A DNA stretch of 64,000 bases, taken from assembly GCA_017465405.1 (NCBI GenBank), contig JAFTWG010000008.1:13304-77303 (forward strand), in the 5' to 3' direction. This document shows, piece after piece, positions 52,699-64,000 of this stretch (the stretch's first letter is position 1; every line of letters starts with the position of its first letter). Origin of the DNA: Alphaproteobacteria bacterium. Lineage in GTDB: Bacteria; Pseudomonadota; Alphaproteobacteria; RF32; CAG-239. Below the pieces are notes generated by a model. That model saw only the letters and a list, made by a program, of their open reading frames with translations. It made no database searches and was not told where the DNA came from. The translations under genes were made by a program, and so were the position numbers.

Positions 52699-52762
52699 CA
52701 AAAGAACAAAAGAAGAACAAATATTATTGACAATTTGATTTTTTGTGCAATATAATGCAGAT

Positions 52763-53293
52763 ATGAAAAATATTTTGATTGTCATAATAATCGCCTTATT
52801 CATTACTCTACCCTGCAATGCAAAGGTCGATGTTAAATTTACGCCTTCTGACGAGTGCGAAACATCTATTATCAATTATATCAATAAAGCTAAAAATAAT
52901 ATCGATATTGCCGTATATTCAATTAATAACGACAAGATTGTATCTGCCCTCAAAAAAGCTCATAACCGAGGAGTTAATTTAAGAATATTAACCGACAAAT
53001 TACAAGCAGCAGCAAAATCGTCTAAAGTTATCGAATTGTATAAATACGGAATCAATATACGAGTTAACAGCAAGCACAAAATAGAACATAACAAGTTTGC
53101 AATTTATGATAAAAAAATAGCATCAAGCGGTTCATATAATTGGACAAATCCGGCCAGTAACAAAAACAGCGAAAACTGCCTGTTCATAATCAGAAACAAT
53201 CGAGCTGTAAACGCATATATCAAACGTTTTGAATATCTGTGGAGAATTAATACCAAACAAAAATCCGACCAATGGTTCAAAAAGAAAACATAG
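52763..53293 (+). CDS. Secreted phospholipase D-family nuclease (Nuc-like, single HKD motif)
   Basis: Signal peptide MKNILIVIIIALFITLPCNA. The HKD signature is HNKFAIYDKKIASSGSYNWT. The size is typical of Nuc-type endonucleases. Confidence 0.82.
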   Translation: MKNILIVIIIALFITLPCNAKVDVKFTPSDECETSIINYINKAKNNIDIAVYSINNDKIVSALKKAHNRGVNLRILTDKLQAAAKSSKVIELYKYGINIRVNSKHKIEHNKFAIYDKKIASSGSYNWTNPASNKNSENCLFIIRNNRAVNAYIKRFEYLWRINTKQKSDQWFKKKT

Positions 53294-53321: not shown

Positions 53322-54524
53322 CTATAAAGAATTACCTTTGTTGCGCAAAGCAGTACCCATTACTATAGATTGTTCAATTTGAGAAACAGTAATTGTTTCA
53401 ACATCATTTTTAACTTCAGATAATTGCAATTTACCTTTTGTTTCCGAAATTTTGTTCCCCATATCACAAGTTTTCTTTCCGTCTTTATTTCTTATAAAAT
53501 CGACAGTTTTTCCATCTTCTCGATAATATACCTCCGTTCCGTCCTTCGCAAATGTACGACGTATGGTTCCGTCTTTACGATAATATGTACTGTTTCCGTC
53601 TTTATCTCGGGTACTTTTTAATGTTTTACCGTCTTCTTGATAATGATGCCAACTTCCATCAGGAAAACGAACACTATCCAGAGTTTTACCATCCTCACGA
53701 TAGTGATACCATGTACCATCAGCAGAATGAGTACTATCTATCGTTTTACCGTCCTCTCGATAATAAGTGCTATTGCCATCTTTATCCCTAGTACTTTTTA
53801 GTGTTTTTCCGTCTTCTCGGTAACTCCTAAAACTTCCATCTTTGTCAAATTCAAAATCTACTGTTTTACCATCTTCTCGATAGTGTGTTGAATTGCCGTC
53901 TTTATCTCGAAATGTCCTTAAGGTTTTTCCGTCTTCTCGATAACTCCTAAAAGTTCCATCGGTCGATAACATACTGGCAATACTATTATCTTTTTCTCTA
54001 TATCCAACACTATTTCCGTGCTCATCATTTTTATAATAGATTTTTTCCAAAGATGTGAAATTTCCTTCATTGTCAAATAGACATGATACAGTTTTACCAT
54101 CTTCTTGAAAATAAGTACTATTACCATTTTTATCTCTGGTGCTCTTTAGGGTTTTACCATCTTCCCGATAGTGATACCAACTGCCATCGGCAAAATGGAT
54201 ACTATCTATCGTTTTACCGTTTTCTCTGTAATATGTAACATTTCCTTCTTCATCTCTGGAACTTTTAGGTGTTACACCATCCTCTCTATAACTCTGAAAA
54301 CAACTGTTTGGAACAAATTCTATAGTTTCAAAACCTTTTTCATCTTTTGAGAATTTTGATTTATCAGGCATAAAATTACCTTTTACTCTATTCAAAAAAG
54401 ACTTGATTTGACTTTCTAAATCAATATCATTTTTAAATTCTTCCAATTCGGTAATTTCACTATGGCTTATATTATCCCCTTTGGATAATAGCGATTTAAT
54501 ACGTGCTTGTAATTTCTTTAGCAT
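53322..54524 (-). CDS. Tandem-repeat protein (about 15 units of ~20 aa, YREDGKT...DG...; MORN-variant/YwqK-like or YD-like)
   Basis: The unit YREDGKTLKSTRDKDGNSTY recurs with variation along most of the protein. It has no signal peptide. Confidence 0.65.
   Translation of the reverse strand: MLKKLQARIKSLLSKGDNISHSEITELEEFKNDIDLESQIKSFLNRVKGNFMPDKSKFSKDEKGFETIEFVPNSCFQSYREDGVTPKSSRDEEGNVTYYRENGKTIDSIHFADGSWYHYREDGKTLKSTRDKNGNSTYFQEDGKTVSCLFDNEGNFTSLEKIYYKNDEHGNSVGYREKDNSIASMLSTDGTFRSYREDGKTLRTFRDKDGNSTHYREDGKTVDFEFDKDGSFRSYREDGKTLKSTRDKDGNSTYYREDGKTIDSTHSADGTWYHYREDGKTLDSVRFPDGSWHHYQEDGKTLKSTRDKDGNSTYYRKDGTIRRTFAKDGTEVYYREDGKTVDFIRNKDGKKTCDMGNKISETKGKLQLSEVKNDVETITVSQIEQSIVMGTALRNKGNSL
53460..54302 (-). 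repeat. Imperfect ~60-nt tandem coding repeats inside the 400-aa gene
   Basis: TACCGTCTTCTCG / TACCATCTTCTCG-type cores (reverse complement of REDGKT codons) recur on the plus strand. Confidence 0.7.
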
Positions 54525-54870
54525 TTTAACACACTCTCAAATTTCATAAAATATAGCAAATTGTAACATATTTACATATGATTAGCAACTGAATAAAATT
54601 CTTTGACAATCAAGAAATCAGGGATTTTTTTTTGCAGAGTATAAAAAGAGTATACATAAACAGAAAAATCCCTAATTTATGTATTAGTTACTCGTTACAC
54701 ACGTTTACCAAGCGTAGTTTAGACCGACACCTAATGAAGTTGCATCATAGTTATTATATCTAAATCCTCTCCTCACGCAAAACGTGTCAAATCTATAAGG
54801 TTTGATTATAAAATGACTTTCCCGAGTTTACTCGGGTATAAGTATTAAATATAATCTAAATTATCAAAAC

Positions 54871-56322
54871 TTACTCTGCTTTTTGCAGTTCAAACATAAC
54901 GTTTTTGAAAGAATTTAGAGCTGTTTCCAAATTATCAACGATTTCATCGGCCAAGATTTCTGGTTCCGGCAGATTTTCAAGGCTTTCCAAGCTTTCATCC
55001 TTTAGCCAAGTAATATCAAGGCTTACCTTATCGCGCTTGATTATCTCGTCATAGCTAAACTTCTTAAAGCGTTCGCTCTCTGTCCTCGCCATAATATTAT
55101 CTGCGTTATAGCACTTAATAAAGTCTGCTAAATGGCTGTCATTTAATGAGTTTGTGACCAAGCTTAGATTCATATTGGTGCGCAAATCATAGAACCACAC
55201 ATCATTTGTGCGGTGTCCTTTATCAAGTGGCGGATATTTATCAAAGAAAATAACGTTAGCTTTAACACCCTGCGCATAAAAAATACCGGTAGGCAGGCGC
55301 AAAACCGTATGCAGATTAAACTCATTTAACAAACGACGGCGAATTTTCTCACCGGCACCGCCCTCAAACAACACATTATCCGGCACAACCACTGCCGCAC
55401 GACCATGCGTATTTAAAATTGTCATAATATGTTGCACAAAATTGAGCTGTTTGTTTGAAGTTGTGGCAATAAAGTCATCACGGTTGTATTCTTCTTTTTC
55501 CGTTGTAACCGAGCCGTCTTCGCCCATAATCTTAAGCCCGCCTTTTTTGCCAAACGGCGGGTTTGTCAGCACCATGTCATAACGCTTATCACCGGCGTTC
55601 ATCAATGAATCGCCTTCTGTCACCGGAGAATTTTTGCCGCCGATACCATGCAGATACATATTCATAGCGCATAAGCTCACAACCAACGGTGTAATATCGG
55701 TCCCGAAAAGCTTTTTCTCTTTTAACGCTTTGATTTTTTCTCTATCCTGTGTTTGCTTCTTCATATATTCATAGGCAATCAATAAAAAGCCACCGGTTCC
55801 GCATGCAGGGTCAACAACTGTTGTATCCGGTGTCGGGTGCATAACCTCAACCATAGCCCGAATAAGCGGACGCGGTGTAAAATATTGACCGGCACCGGCT
55901 TTTGATTCCTGCGCATTTTTCTGCAACAGACCTTCATATATTTCGCCTTTAACATCAATATCCAACCCCATCCATGTTTCACCGTTAATCAGCGAAATTA
56001 AGCGCGATAAATTCGCCGGATTAGAAATTTTGTTACCGGCTTTTTTATAAATGGTGCCGATAATCCCTGTTTGTTTAGAAAGTTTATCCAATATATTTTG
56101 ATATTTATCAGAAAGTTCCGTTCCAGAAAGTTTAAGCAAATTAGACCAACGGCAATCAGCAGGCAATAAAGATTCCTCTTTGAGCAAATCTGTGCGTTCC
56201 TCGTCCATTTTTAAGAACAAAAGATAGGTAAGTTGTGACACATAATCGGTATAACCGATACCGGATTGCGCTAACACGCTGGCATAATTCCAAACTTTTG
56301 TAACGAGATTATTTTCAGTCAT
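54871..56322 (-). CDS. hsdM: Type I restriction-modification system methyltransferase subunit
   Basis: An HsdM N-terminal domain is present (LVTKVWNYASVL ... YLLFLKM). Motif I is VVDPACGTGGFLL and motif IV is VLTNPPFG. Confidence 0.93.
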   Translation of the reverse strand: MTENNLVTKVWNYASVLAQSGIGYTDYVSQLTYLLFLKMDEERTDLLKEESLLPADCRWSNLLKLSGTELSDKYQNILDKLSKQTGIIGTIYKKAGNKISNPANLSRLISLINGETWMGLDIDVKGEIYEGLLQKNAQESKAGAGQYFTPRPLIRAMVEVMHPTPDTTVVDPACGTGGFLLIAYEYMKKQTQDREKIKALKEKKLFGTDITPLVVSLCAMNMYLHGIGGKNSPVTEGDSLMNAGDKRYDMVLTNPPFGKKGGLKIMGEDGSVTTEKEEYNRDDFIATTSNKQLNFVQHIMTILNTHGRAAVVVPDNVLFEGGAGEKIRRRLLNEFNLHTVLRLPTGIFYAQGVKANVIFFDKYPPLDKGHRTNDVWFYDLRTNMNLSLVTNSLNDSHLADFIKCYNADNIMARTESERFKKFSYDEIIKRDKVSLDITWLKDESLESLENLPEPEILADEIVDNLETALNSFKNVMFELQKAE

Positions 56323-56967
56323 TTATTCCGCCACTTTTATAATTTCCTCAAAAACAACATGAGCATTAGTATATGTTCCATCCATGTTATCTTCATTAAA
56401 ACCTAATAATTTTGCATTTTGAATAGCTTTAGGTAAATCATTTCCCAGAATATCAAATATATTTTTTGCATTTTTAAATTTACCTAAATCCGTAAAATTT
56501 TGATTATAATACCTATTAATTTCTTTCATTACTTCCTTGCAACACTTTTCTGAATTTGTAAATTGCGGTGCTACTGATCTCGTATGTAGTAACAACCAAT
56601 ATTCATAGCATGGACTATTATATATAGTTCCCATATCTGTTCGTTTTGCATTTTCTGATATAATATTTTTAATGTCTTTTAACTTGTTTTGGTCTTTATC
56701 AAAACATGCAATTACCATATATCCGTTTGGGTAACTGTCTTTTATTCTTTCAAGTTCTTTTCTTTTGTTTTTAGCACTTAACTGCACGGACTTAGCATCA
56801 TTTCCTCTATTCGATTTTTCTTTTTGTATAACAATTTTTTTTCCATCATACAGTTTCTTTAGTCCATTTAAATAGCATTGCATAGATTCCGCATCTTCAC
56901 ATACAAAATAGTACAATTTATACGGTAGTTCTCTCTGTTGAATCTTTGGATTTATTTTTCTAGCCAT
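56323..56967 (-). CDS. RloB-like protein (AbiLii-like partner of the upstream ATPase)
   Basis: The N-terminal YYFVCEDAESMQCYLNGL parallels the (I/V)xCEGxxTExxYF start of RloB-family proteins. The stop abuts the hsdM ATG and the start abuts the ATPase stop. Confidence 0.6.
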   Translation of the reverse strand: MARKINPKIQQRELPYKLYYFVCEDAESMQCYLNGLKKLYDGKKIVIQKEKSNRGNDAKSVQLSAKNKRKELERIKDSYPNGYMVIACFDKDQNKLKDIKNIISENAKRTDMGTIYNSPCYEYWLLLHTRSVAPQFTNSEKCCKEVMKEINRYYNQNFTDLGKFKNAKNIFDILGNDLPKAIQNAKLLGFNEDNMDGTYTNAHVVFEEIIKVAE

Positions 56968-58266
56968 TTATAGTAACTCCACACTAGGTACTGCCCCATA
57001 TACACCATCCATATAGGCTTCATAGAAGGAAATATTCTTTCTATTCAAGTTTTTAAAATCACTTAATGAATAAAGATCAGAATAAAACCCATTATTTAAT
57101 TCTTTACTCGTAAACCATATTTGATCACGAGACAGATGTTCTCCATCCATCAGATAATGAGCATGAGAAGTAAATATGAGTTGTGCGTTATTCTTATTAA
57201 TATCCGGATTATTAAACAGCGAAACTAAATATTTGACCAAGTAGGGGTGTAGTGCATTATCCAATTCATCAATAAAAATAACTCCTCCGGTATTCATTGT
57301 ATCAAGTAACGGACCTGACATCGATAAAAATGTTTTAGTACCAGCAGATTCCATATTTTTGAAGTCAAACTCCTTTGATGTACCTTCTTCTGTTTTATGA
57401 TAACTCTTAATATCAAGAACTCTTGATTTTTTATTTGATACCACCGATTTTAATATTAGTTCTGCAAGTTTATCTGGTTCTTGCTCCAAAGCATCTTTAA
57501 CATCTTTCATAAGTTCTTCAACAGGAACTTCTTTTACGGATATATCATTAATTCCTAAATCTGCTTGCTTTAACAAATTAATGATACCATTTCCTTCCCC
57601 TTCCGCAATTTTTTGAATTGAAAAATTATGAGATAAGGAATGGGAATCTGCAATTCTTATATTATTTATCAATTCATTATAAGCTTCTTGCACTTCTTTT
57701 ATTTGACAATTATAATTATTTATTAACAAAGGTAAAAACAGTCTATTATTTAAAGTTTCATCACACCATCTTTGTAAAATTCCCTTAGACTTCTCAAAAA
57801 CAGGCTTTCCGTCAACAAATATTCTATTGTACACTCTATTTCTTAGAGCAGAGCCGTTTTGATAAATTGGAGAATAAAACAAACTTTCTTTTTGTATAAT
57901 ATTATTAAAAACTTCTACCCCGTATTCGTACAAAATATCATTTACAATAAATTGTATTTCAAAACTCATCGGTTTATTCAAATTATTATCCGTAAGAGCA
58001 TATCTTTCGTCAGGCCAAGTATTTTCCACATTCATTTTAGTACTTTTTTTTATCATGTACTTTATAAATTTCAGAGCATACAGTACATTAGACTTACCCG
58101 ATGCATTGGATCCGAAGATACCTGCAGTACGATAAAGTCGAGGAATTTTTTTTAATTTTGTTTCTATTAAATTATACATTTTTCCATTTTGTGACAACGG
58201 TTCCATAGAAAAAGTTACTTCTTCTTTAAAACTTCTAAAATTACCAAACTTAAACTCAACTAACAT
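56968..58266 (-). CDS. AAA/ABC-like ATPase (AAA_15/AAA_21 type; RloA/AbiLi-like)
   Basis: The N-terminal FGNFRSFKEE, Walker A GSNASGKSN and Walker B VIFIDELDNALHP are typical of the SMC/ABC-like defence ATPases. Confidence 0.75.
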   Translation of the reverse strand: MLVEFKFGNFRSFKEEVTFSMEPLSQNGKMYNLIETKLKKIPRLYRTAGIFGSNASGKSNVLYALKFIKYMIKKSTKMNVENTWPDERYALTDNNLNKPMSFEIQFIVNDILYEYGVEVFNNIIQKESLFYSPIYQNGSALRNRVYNRIFVDGKPVFEKSKGILQRWCDETLNNRLFLPLLINNYNCQIKEVQEAYNELINNIRIADSHSLSHNFSIQKIAEGEGNGIINLLKQADLGINDISVKEVPVEELMKDVKDALEQEPDKLAELILKSVVSNKKSRVLDIKSYHKTEEGTSKEFDFKNMESAGTKTFLSMSGPLLDTMNTGGVIFIDELDNALHPYLVKYLVSLFNNPDINKNNAQLIFTSHAHYLMDGEHLSRDQIWFTSKELNNGFYSDLYSLSDFKNLNRKNISFYEAYMDGVYGAVPSVELL

Positions 58267-58332
58267 AATACACCTTTCTTTGCGTTTTTTTTACAGAGAA
58301 TAGCTTAATATATATACTTTATTATATTAAAG

Positions 58333-59598
58333 TCAATATTTATATATTTTCTTTCCTTTGGTTTTGGAGAGAGTTTGTTTTTCTTTTTTGATGCGCTCTA
58401 AGAGGACGGAAGCCAGTTCGTCGTTGGGGTCTTGAGCAACGAGTTTGCCCTCAAAAGCTTTTTTTAAGATAGATTGCTTAAGTTTATCAGCTTTTTCTAA
58501 ACCCTCATTAACTACTTTTTCCAACTCATCTGCCACTGCAAAACGCTTTTCAATCTCTTCAACAATGCGTTGTTGCTCAGAAATATCAGATGGAAATGAA
58601 ATCGATATTCTTTTTAACGTATCAAGTATTATTCTTCGAATTGCTACTCCTGTTTTCTTATTAATAGCCTCTGCCAAAAATTTGGGAGATTTTAATACAT
58701 AAAATAAAAACTCACTTTTTAATTCTTTTTTTGGTCTCAAAATGGCCAATGAAGATAATATTACAAATTCCTTTTCATAATCTACAAGCACAACCTTACC
58801 TACAGTTCCATCTTTTGAAAATAAGACATCCCCTTTATATGGCTTACAGCCGGATTTTAACAACAATTCATATTGTTTTTTATCAATCCGCTTCGCCGCA
58901 TCAAAATCAATGATATCTTTTCTTACATCTTTAACTGTAATATAAGGATAACATCCATTACTAACTTGTTTGGGAGAAAAATGGCTGCCGTCTGTAATTT
59001 TCTCACATACATCCTTTAATTGAACTTCTTTCCAATCGGTGGTTTTGTAGAGTTTGCCTTCAAAGGCGGATTTGAGGACGGATTGGCGATATTGTTTAAT
59101 CTGTGCCTGTGCTGATTTTAAGCGCTCTACACCCTCATCAATATCTTGAAACAACGCCTCAATCTTCTCCACAATCCTTTCCTGCTCCGCCAGAGGGGGA
59201 AGATTTAAGGTTTGTTTGGCATATTCAGATATCCAATACCGTTTATGTGTATCGCTTTCATAATGTATTGTTTGCATGAGATAATAAAGAAAGTTTATAT
59301 TTATATCTTTTTTTGCATGCAAAATCTTCATTGCTGATGATTTAACCTTAAAAGGAAAATCAACAAGTTTCGAAGCCGTTGTAAAATCATCAAATATAAT
59401 TACTGTTTCTTTTGAAGCATCAAATATTCCATCTTTTTCATCAGTATACCCGAGAATAAAACTTTTTCCTGCTGTTAATACCGCTATTCCTTGCTCTTGA
59501 TAATCGGTATTGCTAACAATATAACGAGTTGGCTGTTCATAATCTAAAACATCCTCAAATTTACACTCACACCAATTTAACGGAAGTTCATTCGGCAT
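58333..59598 (-). CDS. hsdS: Type I restriction-modification system specificity subunit
   Basis: Two variable TRDs are each followed by a conserved helical repeat (AEQERIVEKIEALF...SVLKSAFEGKL and EQQRIVEEIEKRF...SILKKAFEGKL). Confidence 0.92.
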   Translation of the reverse strand: MPNELPLNWCECKFEDVLDYEQPTRYIVSNTDYQEQGIAVLTAGKSFILGYTDEKDGIFDASKETVIIFDDFTTASKLVDFPFKVKSSAMKILHAKKDININFLYYLMQTIHYESDTHKRYWISEYAKQTLNLPPLAEQERIVEKIEALFQDIDEGVERLKSAQAQIKQYRQSVLKSAFEGKLYKTTDWKEVQLKDVCEKITDGSHFSPKQVSNGCYPYITVKDVRKDIIDFDAAKRIDKKQYELLLKSGCKPYKGDVLFSKDGTVGKVVLVDYEKEFVILSSLAILRPKKELKSEFLFYVLKSPKFLAEAINKKTGVAIRRIILDTLKRISISFPSDISEQQRIVEEIEKRFAVADELEKVVNEGLEKADKLKQSILKKAFEGKLVAQDPNDELASVLLERIKKEKQTLSKTKGKKIYKY

Positions 59599-59602
59599 TT
59601 AT

Positions 59603-60487
59603 TTATCTTTCTTGACGGCTTTTTGCTTCATAATTTTCGTCTTCACCCGTTAAGTTAATAGTGAAGAGCCTTCTATCAATTAATTTTAAGAAATTCATAG
59701 TGTTATCTGCATCAAAAGATATTTGATCATTTGATATATTAATTGAAATGTTTTGTTTTCGACATGCTGAAATTACTTCATCAAGTGACAAATTATTTAA
59801 TCTACCGGATGATTTAATTGAAGCGACTAAACGTGCGGCCATTATATGATTTTGAATATATTCTTTAGCTTCATCTGAAAATATGAATACAGGTGTGTTT
59901 TGCTCTATTATTCGAATATTTGTTGCAGATGCTAGCCTTACAGTTTCACCCAAGTCAGCAATACTTTCAAAAACGAGGTACTTATTTATATACGCAATAT
60001 TATTAAAAACAAGAATATCAAAAGACTTATCTAATTTGAATAAACTTCCAGAAAAGGTTTTTAAAGCATCGCTAATAAACTGGATATACCAAGCGTGTTG
60101 GGCTGTTACGGCTTTAAAATATGTGGCCTTTTTGATAGCTAGAAGAGTCTCGTTGTTATTGTCAGTTAGTCTGCAAAAATAATATATTATATCTTCAGGA
60201 TTGTTAACAATCTGTTGATTGTCAACACTTATATCGTTGTTGTTATAAATTTCCAATATATTACGGCAATAATCACTATTTAAGCTTATTTGTAGCTTAT
60301 CTTCAGAGTTATATTTTTCAGAAGGTGAATAATCATTAATATTATCACCTAATTCGTATTCTGTATTTTCAACCATATTTACTAATATTTCCTGGACTTC
60401 CCTTGTCATTGCAATTTTATAAAATAATCCATTGTCTTTTTGTATAAAAAATTCTACAATACGAAGATCTGTAATATCAAAAGCCAT
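59603..60487 (-). CDS. Hypothetical 294-aa soluble protein; KwaB-like (DUF4868-like) by size and gene context, not verified
   Basis: The ATG directly abuts the stop of the upstream 4-TM gene (TAAATG). The size and partner match the Kiwa KwaB architecture. I cannot verify any sequence motif from memory. Confidence 0.4.
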   Translation of the reverse strand: MAFDITDLRIVEFFIQKDNGLFYKIAMTREVQEILVNMVENTEYELGDNINDYSPSEKYNSEDKLQISLNSDYCRNILEIYNNNDISVDNQQIVNNPEDIIYYFCRLTDNNNETLLAIKKATYFKAVTAQHAWYIQFISDALKTFSGSLFKLDKSFDILVFNNIAYINKYLVFESIADLGETVRLASATNIRIIEQNTPVFIFSDEAKEYIQNHIMAARLVASIKSSGRLNNLSLDEVISACRKQNISINISNDQISFDADNTMNFLKLIDRRLFTINLTGEDENYEAKSRQER

Positions 60488-61033
60488 TTAATCTAACTCC
60501 TTTTCCCAAAATAGTGAATTTGTTAAGCGTACAGCGATGATGTCATTAGATTGGATTTCTTGAATTTCCTTTTTACTAATAATAACATAACTGTGGGTGT
60601 TTTGGGGTGTTACTTTGTATAGTTTATACCCAAAGATATAAAAGAAAATATTTAAGTAATATAAATTAAAAATGTAAAATACAATTATAACAAAAACTAT
60701 CGTAGCTACAAAAAAAGGAAGTTGAGACGTTGAAGTTAAATCGTTTTGGCATAAAGGCAACGCTATTGATAAAATATATGTTGAATATTCTTCTACACAT
60801 GGTGTGATATTTGTGTTAGTACTTAATCTTATTTTTTCATCTTTAGCAATATAACACCTCAAAATCAAAGGCAAAAATGAAACAACGACTATACCCCACA
60901 TAATATAGGTATAAATTGTATTATAAGTTCCTGTCTCAAAATCAGATCCTTTTATCGCTAACAAAGCAAAAACAGGACTCACACTTGATATTAGCAATAG
61001 GAATCTTAGAATTTTTAACCCTTTTTCTGCCAT
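60488..61033 (-). CDS. Four-TM small membrane protein; KwaA-like by architecture
   Basis: The 181-aa protein has four hydrophobic helices (ILRFLLLISSVSPVFALLAI, IMWGIVVVSFLPLIL, YILSIALPL, FFVATIVFVIIVFYIF...) and starts 16 nt after the hsdR stop. Confidence 0.4.
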   Translation of the reverse strand: MAEKGLKILRFLLLISSVSPVFALLAIKGSDFETGTYNTIYTYIMWGIVVVSFLPLILRCYIAKDEKIRLSTNTNITPCVEEYSTYILSIALPLCQNDLTSTSQLPFFVATIVFVIIVFYIFNLYYLNIFFYIFGYKLYKVTPQNTHSYVIISKKEIQEIQSNDIIAVRLTNSLFWEKELD

Positions 61034-61049
61034 CTATTTAGTCTCCTCC

Positions 61050-63770
61050 TTATGCCACCAATGCCAAGCTCATATCCGCCAACAGCGGTTCTAAATCTTT
61101 GCCGAAGATTTTGCGGGCGCGGATAATACCACCTTTATCATCCATTGTATCTTGAATATCTTTCGGCTCTATGCGCACATTGGCAATAATGTAATCTTTT
61201 ATCATCTCAAGCCACTCGTTTTGCTCTGCTGTAAACACAATACCCTTTTTGAGCTGACGACCTTTCCAAAGGTTAAAACGCTGATTGGCAACTTTATCAA
61301 ACTCTTCCAGCTTATCATCTTGTCCAATAGCAAAACGCACCAGTTGCACCAAGTTGGTCAGCAACCGCACCGGATTTTTAACATGTTGGACTTTATCTTT
61401 TTCCAATAGCTCAAACGCACGCCAAATCTCTATCGGTGCCAAAGGCGGACGTGCTTCACGCATTTTTTCTGCCAGTTCACGGATATTGGCATAAGTCAGA
61501 TTTCTCTTGCCATATTGCACATTATAAATGATAGAAAGTGCATCAATTTCATCTTTATTGGCTTCTATAAATTCCTTAAACGAAGTTATGATGTTTTTAG
61601 CCTTTTCGCCGTTGATATCCGCAGAAATAACTTCATCTTGCGCCAGTTCATCAATATAAATGCCGGTTTTGGCACTCATATCAAGCAAAGTTTGCCGCAA
61701 ACTTGATTTATTAAACGGTTTAACCGCATCATCTTTGATTTTTTCTATTTCCTGCTCGGTTTTGCCCTCAAGTTTGTCCGGCTCTATGGCATCAAGAATA
61801 TTGCCGGCAATTTCATGCAACGGCTTTCCTCCGGTTAGAGCTTTTATCTTGTCTTTTTCTTCATCATTTAAGTTGCGCTCTATATTGACAATGCGTCCGG
61901 CAAGCGTGCTTAATGTGTCATCATCAGTTTTGCCTTGTGCCACTTGCTCTAAAAGCTTCTTTAACGAAACCGAACGTTTGCGCTCCAATGGTTGTGAAGC
62001 GGTCTTTTTACTCTCGGTTACACCGACAGCATCAATCAAATAAAAGAAACTTTTACCTTCAGCATTCGGAGTTACCTGCTTTAAGTCCGTATCATTAATG
62101 GAACGAACGCCACGACCTTTCATCTGCTCATAATAAAGCGATGAGCGAACATCTCGCAAAAACATTACCACTTCCAAAGGTTTAATATCCGTGCCGGTGG
62201 CAATCATATCCACCGTTACGGCAATACGCGGTAAAGGCGAAACACGAAACTGTTTAATCAGTTCTTCCGGCTTTTCACCGGTAACGTTATAGGTAATCTT
62301 TTTGCAAAAATCGTTGCCTTGCCCGAAAACTTCTCTCGTGATGCGAACAATTTCTTCGGCATGATTGTCATCTTTGGCAAAAATAAGCGTTTTCGGTGTC
62401 CACGCAAAATTCGGCTCACGTTCCGGAAACAGCTCGGTATAAAGCGAATTTTTATAACACTCCATAATGGTGCGAATTTGATTTGGCACGAGAACAGAAC
62501 GGTCTAAGTCATTCTTTTTATACTCTAAGTCTTCGTCCAGTTGCTCATAAGTTATCTTACGGCTTTTCTTATTACGCAGTGGCACAGGAAAAGATTTGTC
62601 TATTTTACCACCGTCTTCGCTGATTTTGGTTTTAATGCGTAAAACCTGATAATCTACATTAACACCATCAGCAACCGAGCGTTCATAAGGATATTCGGCA
62701 ACAATGTTGCGATTAAAATAACCAAAGGTTTGCTTAGATGGCGTAGCTGTCAAACCGATAATGAAAGCGTCAAAATATTCCAAAACTTGCCGCCAATCGC
62801 CGTAAATACTGCGGTGACATTCATCAGTTATGATAAAATCGAAATAGTCCGGCGGAAGCGCAGAATTATAATTAACTTCTTTAGGCGCACCCATTGAACC
62901 GAGCTCGTAAGCGGAAGCATCTTCGTCTGCCTCATCATAATCTTCTTCACCGCAGAGCATTGAATAAAGCCGTTGAATGGTGGTAATCACAACTTTGGCA
63001 TCAGAATCAACCTTATTATGTTGCAAGTGCTGAGCAATATAAACTTGAGGAAATAGGCGATTTACATCAGGTAGGCGAAAGTTTTCAAACTCTTTTTTGG
63101 TTTGTTTGCCGAGATTATTGCGGTCTACCAAGAACAAAATACGCTTTGCTCCGGCATATTTAAGCAAGCGATATGAAAAATTACAAGCCGTAAAAGTTTT
63201 TCCGGCACCGGTTGCCATTTGAATAAGCGCTTTTTGATTGCCTTCCGCTAATGATTTTTCTAAGCCTTCAATGGCTTCAAATTGACAATCACGCAAAGAG
63301 CCTTTTTCTAATGTAGGCATATTTTGCAAGCGATTGCGCAAGGTGCTTTCAACTTCTAACATATTCAGCAATGATTGGGGCGAATGAAAAGCAAAAATGC
63401 GCCGAGAACGGCAGATTTTATCCCGCCCGTCACAAAAGAAAGTCTCATTACCAGTGCTTTCATAAATAAAAGGTAACGGCATTTGCCAGTTTTTAACGTA
63501 TTCCGGTAAATGGCAAGCATATCCATGCGATTGATTTTCAACACCGCTTAAAGCAACACCGGCTTTCTTTGCTTCTATAACACCGCAGGCTTTGCCATCT
63601 ACAAACAAAAGATAGTCAGCCTCTGTGTTATCGTCCATCAAAAACTCGCGAACAGCCACGCCTAAACCAGCTGTGCGGTCAAAATCCTCACGGTTCTGTA
63701 TTATCCAACCGGCATTTATCAGTTGTTCATCTATTTTTTCTCTTGCTTTTTCTTCAGGGGTTGAAGTCAT
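61050..63770 (-). CDS. hsdR: Type I restriction-modification system endonuclease/helicase subunit
   Basis: The N-terminal nuclease region is present (EADYLLFVDGKACGVIEAKK). Helicase motif I is MATGAGKTFT and motif II is ITDECHRS. The long C-terminal helical domain resembles EcoEI-type HsdR. Confidence 0.93.
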   Translation of the reverse strand: MTSTPEEKAREKIDEQLINAGWIIQNREDFDRTAGLGVAVREFLMDDNTEADYLLFVDGKACGVIEAKKAGVALSGVENQSHGYACHLPEYVKNWQMPLPFIYESTGNETFFCDGRDKICRSRRIFAFHSPQSLLNMLEVESTLRNRLQNMPTLEKGSLRDCQFEAIEGLEKSLAEGNQKALIQMATGAGKTFTACNFSYRLLKYAGAKRILFLVDRNNLGKQTKKEFENFRLPDVNRLFPQVYIAQHLQHNKVDSDAKVVITTIQRLYSMLCGEEDYDEADEDASAYELGSMGAPKEVNYNSALPPDYFDFIITDECHRSIYGDWRQVLEYFDAFIIGLTATPSKQTFGYFNRNIVAEYPYERSVADGVNVDYQVLRIKTKISEDGGKIDKSFPVPLRNKKSRKITYEQLDEDLEYKKNDLDRSVLVPNQIRTIMECYKNSLYTELFPEREPNFAWTPKTLIFAKDDNHAEEIVRITREVFGQGNDFCKKITYNVTGEKPEELIKQFRVSPLPRIAVTVDMIATGTDIKPLEVVMFLRDVRSSLYYEQMKGRGVRSINDTDLKQVTPNAEGKSFFYLIDAVGVTESKKTASQPLERKRSVSLKKLLEQVAQGKTDDDTLSTLAGRIVNIERNLNDEEKDKIKALTGGKPLHEIAGNILDAIEPDKLEGKTEQEIEKIKDDAVKPFNKSSLRQTLLDMSAKTGIYIDELAQDEVISADINGEKAKNIITSFKEFIEANKDEIDALSIIYNVQYGKRNLTYANIRELAEKMREARPPLAPIEIWRAFELLEKDKVQHVKNPVRLLTNLVQLVRFAIGQDDKLEEFDKVANQRFNLWKGRQLKKGIVFTAEQNEWLEMIKDYIIANVRIEPKDIQDTMDDKGGIIRARKIFGKDLEPLLADMSLALVA

Positions 63771-64000
63771 TTGAAAGTTCCAAAAGTTATATTATGGCAA
63801 CGATTTTATACTAAATTCCTCGGAAATCAAGTTGTATTTTATTACTCACAATTCCCTAAAATTATTTTTATAGCTTTTATAAATTTCTTTGTATTTTATG
63901 AAGTTCTTTAAAAATATAAACTGCTAATTTGAATACTTTACAAAACTTGAAAGTATCATAATAACTTATTAGAGATTATAGTGTTTGTGCTTACTATTTG

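Follow-up and report, generated by a model that had tools for sequence, protein, structure and literature searches.

The window analysed here, a stretch of 64,000 nucleotides (nt) from contig JAFTWG010000008.1 of an alphaproteobacterial assembly (GCA_017465405.1), contains seven tightly packed genes on the minus strand (54871-63770), which the listing of open reading frames (ORFs) gives in the order hsdR-kwaA-kwaB-hsdS-abiLi-abiLii-hsdM. Together they span 8.9 kb and look like one operon, because the gaps between them are narrow (16, 0, 4, 66, 0 and 0 nt in operon order, from the ORF listing and the sequence) and no terminator-like site occurs between the genes (consensus scan of 54000-64000; counts equal to the shuffled expectation). 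The subject of this study is the second and the third gene, a pair that appears from its sequence to be a complete and intact Kiwa system of a divergent subfamily, carried as a passenger in an operon for a type I restriction-modification (R-M) enzyme. Kiwa is said to have been discovered by Doron et al. in 2018.

The first gene of the pair, kwaA (60488-61033, minus strand), begins with an ATG 16 nt past the hsdR stop codon. Its Shine-Dalgarno sequence, AGGAGGAG (61043-61050, minus strand), is located 9 nt before the ATG and overlaps the last base of that stop codon. The ORF encodes a membrane protein of 181 amino acids (aa), which in an AlphaFold2 (AF2) model has four transmembrane helices, two strands in a short intracellular loop and four more towards the C-terminus. 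The kwaA stop codon, TAA (60490-60488), directly abuts the ATG (60487-60485) of kwaB (59603-60487, minus strand), the ribosome-binding site of which, GGAG (60497-60500, minus strand), lies within the 3′ end of kwaA, again 9 nt before the ATG. The kwaB product is a soluble, acidic protein of 294 aa (pI 4.7) without any hydrophobic segment (maximum KD19 1.06), in which an alpha/beta domain at the N-terminus is followed by DUF4868 at the C-terminus.

We identify the predicted 294-aa protein as KwaB, because searches with Pfam, with PADLOC, of a profile against the PDB and of the modelled fold all agree and nothing else was found. In Pfam, the match to PF16162 (KwaB, formerly DUF4868) reaches 50.5 bits (E 3.2e-13), the gathering score being 26.3, with residues 101-275 aligned to positions 5-181 of the 186 in the model. 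The PADLOC model PDLC00228 covers nearly the entire protein (E 9.7e-52), residues 2-292 aligning with positions 4-297 of its 300, and five further PADLOC KwaB models also match. HMMER, run exhaustively over 1.84 billion cluster representatives, yielded 429 relatives, nearly all of about 300 aa; 97 of 100 aligned family members carry PF16162 and no other Pfam family. A profile of 100 sequences reaches the solved KwaB structures 9mrx/9o0i (E 6e-5), with nothing else significant in the PDB. On the same 100-sequence alignment, AF2 produced a model with a predicted local distance difference test (pLDDT) of 93.3 and a predicted template-modelling score (pTM) of 0.85. When this model was compared with the PDB using Foldseek, only six chains were retrieved at E <= 0.001, all of them KwaB (9nyu, 9mtn, 9mrx; E 1e-12 to 4e-11, 306-315 aligned columns, template-modelling (TM) scores of 0.58-0.62, 12-13% identity), and the next match had an E-value of 0.48. 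In the profile alignment to 9mrx_K, the DNA-contact residues R167, D169 and R233 of Escherichia coli KwaB align with K151, D153 and R219. These three are conserved in the family and sit in its most conserved motifs, FKLD..FD and AARL.

On the sequence evidence, the 181-aa protein is homologous to KwaA without being an equivalog of the KwaA of E. coli type. The PADLOC KwaA model PDLC00218 matches residues 3-179 of 181 (E 7.1e-21) and is the best of ten PADLOC KwaA models with a match, and the identical protein carries Pfam PF28043 (KwaA) in the precomputed annotation of three public assemblies (L010-L012; loci in other assemblies are given here by such numbers). Its hydropathy profile has three strong hydrophobic segments and one weaker; in the secondary structure of the AF2 model, helices span residues 3-28, 35-63, 83-95 and 102-133, while the loop after helix 2 contributes two strands and the C-terminus four. 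This order agrees with the description of E. coli KwaA, in which the first intracellular loop (ICL1) and the C-terminus form a six-stranded barrel (PMC11785009), albeit in a model, built from 14 sequences, with a pLDDT of only 60. The top six fold matches of this model in the PDB are all KwaA chains, at E 9e-3 to 0.2 and TM scores of 0.32-0.39 (16-19% identity in the structure-based alignments), and the next match has an E-value of 3.2. Since the confidence of the model is low, these weak matches are only suggestive.

A preliminary description of this stretch, made from the sequence alone, had noted a 181-aa protein with four hydrophobic helices and, stop abutting start, a soluble 294-aa protein wedged between hsdR and hsdS, and had guessed at Kiwa from architecture and genomic context. 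The helices, the zero spacing and the solubility are as described, and the flanking genes are confirmed by Pfam (ResIII and EcoEI_R_C on one side, Methylase_S on the other), in a context that is conserved in relatives. The guess itself is borne out by the family models of both proteins and by the KwaB fold: the proposed search for DUF4868 in the second protein returned PF16162 well above its gathering score, and the PADLOC defence models recognise both proteins over their full length. The fallback offered there, an uncharacterised membrane-sensor/effector pair, does not apply, because both proteins match KwaA/KwaB models.

Homologues of both proteins were found at 41-92% identity, and the two genes travel together. 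Kwa genes occur adjacent, on the same strand and with kwaA first, in all loci examined for nine sampled clusters of the subfamily. A scan of metagenome contigs with a 19-sequence KwaB alignment yielded 71 loci, two with close KwaB relatives (77-78% identity) and the rest with 24-37% identity. Of the 49 distant loci with enough upstream sequence, 46 encode a KwaA homologue directly upstream of kwaB and on its strand, the junction being mostly an overlap of 4 nt or 1 nt. The three exceptions represent one repeated locus type (L050 8001-8741, L051 7316-8056, L093 3015-3755), where a shorter KwaB-like ORF of about 246 aa matches from query residue 46 onwards, with no detectable KwaA homologue upstream; this could be a split or solo KwaB variant. 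A scan of genome contigs gave no match with the single protein as the query and one locus with the subfamily alignment. No KwaB relative was found in the phage collection. Only two distant relatives (about 24% identity) came up on Rhizobium plasmids, and the annotation of one of them names a KwaB-like domain.

Purifying selection acts on both genes: compared with four relatives, the ratio of nonsynonymous to synonymous substitution rates (dN/dS) is 0.06-0.19 for kwaA and kwaB, with dS saturated in all comparisons but one. Given the conserved pairing and the low dN/dS, kwaAB is an old, selected two-gene unit. Between the window (59603-61033) and L019 (2945-4375), the kwaA products are 92% identical at a dS of 0.27 and the kwaB products 79% at a dS of about 2, which suggests a recombination breakpoint between the genes. 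This reading agrees with the partial incongruence of KwaA and KwaB trees (Zhang et al., PMC11785009). At two other loci, kwaA is absent from the public gene calls, which have nothing in its place but an antisense ORF and, in L020, a fragment of 69 aa. We considered whether kwaA is a pseudogene there (L020 3521-4045, L021 3798-4322) and rejected this, tblastn revealing an uninterrupted full-length KwaA in one frame; the missing call is an annotation artefact.

By Pfam and PADLOC, the host operon encodes the full-length HsdR, HsdS and HsdM of a type I R-M enzyme. The first gene, hsdR (61050-63770, minus strand), specifies the 906-aa restriction subunit (Pfam ResIII 8.6e-40, EcoEI_R_C 2.6e-31, SWI2_SNF2 and HSDR_N; PADLOC REase_I 3.7e-51). 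The ATG of hsdS (58333-59598, minus strand; 421-aa specificity subunit) is situated 4 nt past the kwaB stop codon, and its product matches Pfam Methylase_S in two stretches (8.5e-29) as well as PADLOC Specificity_I (1.5e-64). The operon ends with hsdM (54871-56322, minus strand) for the 483-aa methyltransferase (Pfam N6_Mtase 6.6e-76 and HsdM_N; PADLOC MTase_I 1.6e-185). Between hsdS and hsdM are two genes for an AbiL pair, namely abiLi (56968-58266, minus strand), for an AAA_21 ATPase of 432 aa (PADLOC AbiLi 4.3e-88; Pfam AAA_21 2.3e-29), and abiLii (56323-56967, minus strand), for an RloB-like protein of 214 aa (Pfam RloB 3.6e-23; PADLOC AbiLii 1e-14), which abuts both abiLi and hsdM. AAA_21 (103.9 bits) and, after it, RloB (83.2 bits) are both over the Pfam cut-offs. 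The spacing suggests that kwaAB could be co-transcribed and translationally coupled with the hsd genes, and the consensus scan found no recognisable promoter of kwaAB's own, promoter-like sites in 54000-64000 not exceeding the shuffled expectation.

Gut metagenomes, sheep and bovine ones among them, contain the sequence, and its nearest relatives bear the label of uncultured Alphaproteobacteria or of an “Azospirillum sp.” metagenome-assembled genome. An independent metagenome assembly (L010) has the 8.9-kb operon unchanged over its whole length, and two more have identical kwaA and kwaB. In L010, the genes on either side of it are housekeeping ones (for ATP synthase, biotin carboxylase and a member of the IMPDH family), and no integrase is close by; the operon is chromosomal, in an uncultured gut alphaproteobacterium. 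L011 has identical kwaA/kwaB and the same layout from hsdR on (identity over the whole operon was verified for L010 only). Immediately upstream of hsdR, the two loci differ, one with unannotated genes for proteins of 396 and 656 aa and the other with an OmpH gene: the upstream flank of hsdR varies between strains.

The sample for genomic context comprises nine clusters of the subfamily, ranging from 52 to 100% KwaB identity. Six of them have the arrangement hsdR-kwaA-kwaB-hsdS-...-hsdM. A seventh (L022 144-5479) features a reverse transcriptase, a 108-aa C-terminal fragment of HsdR (T1RH-like_C), kwaA, kwaB and a GmrSD-type gene, and the HsdR piece may be what is left of the hsdR-kwaAB arrangement. 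In the two others, kwaAB is located elsewhere, once beside serine recombinases and orphan methyltransferases and once in an integrase island; pairs outside any hsd operon have 77% and 61% KwaB identity. In blastn comparisons, hsdR, kwaA, kwaB and the start of hsdS constitute one collinear homologous block in four of five related loci (L019, L013, L009, L020), which splits into two collinear alignments in L006, where there is an extra gene after hsdR. Across related loci, HsdR and HsdM are 71-80% identical, KwaA 50-77%, KwaB 54-74% and HsdS 42-45%. In the wider family, an hsd-like gene is nearby in only 7 of 28 loci with enough context, so the embedding is a trait of the gut subfamily and not of Kiwa in general. 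In the sampled loci, the neighbours of kwaAB are always defence genes or mobile elements.

The operon is a mosaic in base composition: hsdR and hsdM have 41% GC, kwaA, kwaB, abiLi and abiLii 28-30% (20-24% at third codon positions) and hsdS 34%, which is also the mean of the window. The same contrast is seen in related loci, and it fits a variable middle part with a history different from that of the two conserved anchor genes around it. The AbiL pair looks like a recent insertion in the lineage of the window, given that blastn found no counterpart of the abiL region in any of the related hsd-Kiwa operons compared. Other genes were noted in comparable positions. Between hsdR and kwaA, four loci carry a gene for a 240-aa protein (L006-L008 6701-7423, L001 8692-9414) with a weak match to PADLOC PD-T7-4 (1.2e-4) and none in Pfam; between hsdS and hsdM, there are genes for proteins of 220 aa (L019 5658-6320) and 153 aa (L020 6322-6783), for which neither Pfam nor PADLOC gave a match. 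By position, all three are candidate defence genes. Downstream of hsdM in the window, 52745-53293 (plus strand) specifies a 182-aa PLD-family protein with a hydrophobic N-terminus (PLDc_2 98 bits; PADLOC DrmC models 1.5e-12), and 53322-54524 (minus strand) a 400-aa protein consisting of YREDGKT-type repeats (DUF2963 53 bits).

The reading that we strongly favour is that of a working Kiwa system that shares its transcription with the hsd genes but does not depend on them for its action. The hsd operon would supply the promoter for kwaAB, and hsdR and hsdM could serve as homologous anchors for swapping the variable middle (kwaAB, hsdS, abiL) between strains. Cassette behaviour of this kind is supported by the kwaAB pairs outside hsd operons, by the low GC of the embedded genes and by the lack of abiL in all related operons. 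The action itself may be pictured after E. coli Kiwa, where KwaA tetramers in the inner membrane and KwaB dimers docked on their cytoplasmic beta-barrels form a fence-like supercomplex, which collects where phages attach and reacts when the membrane is distorted, and where KwaB binds DNA via DUF4868 without cutting it, replication and late transcription stall and the cell survives (PMC11785009). By analogy, tetramers of the 181-aa KwaA in the inner membrane would hold docked dimers of the 294-aa KwaB; the complex would assemble where phages attach and sense the distorted membrane; KwaB would then bind the incoming DNA via its DUF4868 domain without cleavage; and DNA-bound KwaB would stall replication and late transcription, allowing the infected cell to survive. 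Kiwa would most likely constitute one more layer of defence, independent of the restriction enzyme. This course of events can only be inferred, because the pair is far from the characterised E. coli system.

Several observations weigh against this reading or parts of it. The NCBIfam models do not match KwaB, while the KwaA equivalog model NF041622 scores 35.2 bits (E 1e-08), under its cut-off of 100 bits. Neither phmmer with KwaB against PDB sequences, which returned nothing relevant, nor a 12-sequence profile of the subfamily against the PDB found the solved E. coli KwaB, and phmmer with KwaA reached E. coli KwaA only at E 1.5. Confidence in the KwaA model is low, and by E-value its PDB matches fall short of significance (best 9e-3). 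Of the six DNA-contact residues, only three align with a conserved residue of the family: no conserved counterpart is found for N134, R142 and K187 of E. coli KwaB, in an alignment that is uncertain at 12-13% identity. Since the subfamily is known from sequence, its KwaB is that distant from the E. coli protein and direct searches miss it, the trigger, the DNA binding without cleavage and the non-abortive outcome may not transfer from E. coli. As to co-transcription, a search for RNA-seq runs found the sequence in DNA metagenomes only. Finally, the independence of Kiwa from the R-M enzyme is an assumption, and the hsdR-kwaAB-hsdS block has been kept over saturated synonymous divergence, for which a functional link could be responsible.

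Such a link is the alternative that survives best, even though we think it unlikely: Kiwa, instead of being an independent passenger, would work as an integral partner of the type I R-M enzyme. KwaB might, for example, hold or stall incoming DNA at its site of entry and give the slow, translocating HsdR complex time to cut; alternatively, shared transcription might set a required stoichiometry, and selection would keep the genes together. The block discussed above lends itself to this explanation, aligning as one collinear homologous stretch in four of the five related loci compared (as two in L006), present in six of the nine clusters with an hsdR C-terminal remnant upstream of kwaAB in the seventh, and maintained among relatives with KwaB identities of only 54-79% and saturated dS. 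The very tight gene junctions point the same way. In addition, a phage inhibitor of KwaB, Gam, also acts on RecBCD, so that E. coli Kiwa has an inhibitor in common with another DNA-targeting defence (PMC11785009). However, vertical inheritance of the block explains the synteny equally well, and close kwaAB pairs (77% and 61% KwaB identity) do without any hsd operon; in the wider family, an hsd-like gene is close to just 7 of the 28 loci that offer enough context. Moreover, the embedding of unrelated defences in type I R-M operons occurs in general and requires no functional coupling (Payne et al.), and the very operon in the window hosts AbiL, where its relatives host other unrelated genes.

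A bolder version of integration, to which we give slightly less credit still, is a composite hsdR-kwaA-kwaB-hsdS-hsdM machine, in which a membrane sensor and a DNA clamp would capture DNA at entry and hand it to the restriction complex, or hold it there for cutting. If true, it would explain why the block is kept together across relatives whose KwaB proteins are 54-79% identical, and it would be the first mechanistic coupling of an entry sensor at the membrane with a restriction enzyme.

It is quite improbable that the pair is an inactive relic, or a membrane protein with a soluble partner in a role unrelated to phage defence. The subfamily is indeed very divergent from the Kiwa systems that have been tested, but both ORFs are intact and have good ribosome-binding sites, dN/dS is low, the family motifs are conserved, the operon recurs without change in an independent assembly (and kwaA/kwaB in two more), and the neighbours are invariably defence genes or mobile elements. 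The idea of a different, unnamed membrane-plus-soluble family that is Kiwa-like in architecture only, for which the failures of phmmer against the PDB and of the NCBIfam models could be adduced, is hardly tenable, as the Pfam, PADLOC, profile-to-PDB and fold searches all return Kiwa and nothing else.

With an independently acting Kiwa as the preferred explanation, the practical gain lies in the annotation: a pair of “hypothetical” genes from an uncultured gut bacterium can be named correctly as Kiwa genes. A single 8.9-kb operon stacks three defences (type I R-M, Kiwa and AbiL), and the locus provides a clear, subfamily-wide example of the known nesting of defence genes in type I R-M operons. 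A KwaA/KwaB pair this divergent, with 12-19% identity to the solved E. coli proteins, could be used to test which features of Kiwa are universal. Kiwa is a known system with solved structures and its kind of embedding is already documented, and the pair is not a new kind of system. By itself, the locus opens no new question; only the small chance of a coupling with the restriction enzyme exceeds the routine.

Embedding of defence genes in type I R-M, BREX, DISARM and Hma operons has been described as “guilt by embedding” (Payne et al. 2024, bioRxiv 10.1101/2024.01.29.577857), and rloA/rloB are found inside hsd loci of Campylobacter jejuni (PMC2928727). As in these cases, the foreign defence genes of the window are nested on the same strand among hsdR, hsdS and hsdM, and different relatives carry different genes in the same slots; like the Campylobacter loci, the operon embeds a protein of the RloB family. 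It differs from the embeddings of Payne et al. in that two known systems, Kiwa and AbiL, occupy two slots of one operon, and from one-off embeddings in that the Kiwa slot is conserved across the gut subfamily. Kiwa is not named as an embedded system in the main text or the supplements of Payne et al., and a literature search combining Kiwa, type I restriction and embedded returned no relevant paper; the missing reports are a reporting gap, not a sign of a new principle.

The E. coli system (O55:H7 RM12579 and ECOR strains; Zhang, Todeschini et al. 2025, PMC11785009; PDB 9mrg, 9mrr, 9mrx, 9mtn, 9nyu, 9o0i) is, like the pair in the window, a two-gene operon with kwaA first. Common to both are a KwaA of about 180-195 aa with four transmembrane helices and a beta-rich cytoplasmic part, and a soluble two-domain KwaB of about 300 aa with DUF4868 at the C-terminus; the modelled fold of the window KwaB matches its E. 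coli counterpart over the full length (TM score about 0.6, E 1e-12). The differences are the low sequence identity (only 12-13% for KwaB and 16-19% for KwaA), the shorter KwaB (294 versus 315 aa), the assignment of the pair to other PADLOC sub-models and its score below the NCBIfam KwaA equivalog cut-off, as well as, unlike in E. coli, the residence in a type I R-M operon and a low-GC gut alphaproteobacterial host. Another divergent Kiwa outside Enterobacteria, Kiwa 90730 of Streptococcus thermophilus, protects against phages when cloned and shares its defence island with R-M systems, as shown by Kelleher et al. (2024, PMC11514479). It is located in a CRISPR-associated island, whereas the window pair lies inside an hsd operon, and its protective action supports the view that distant Kiwa variants are functional.

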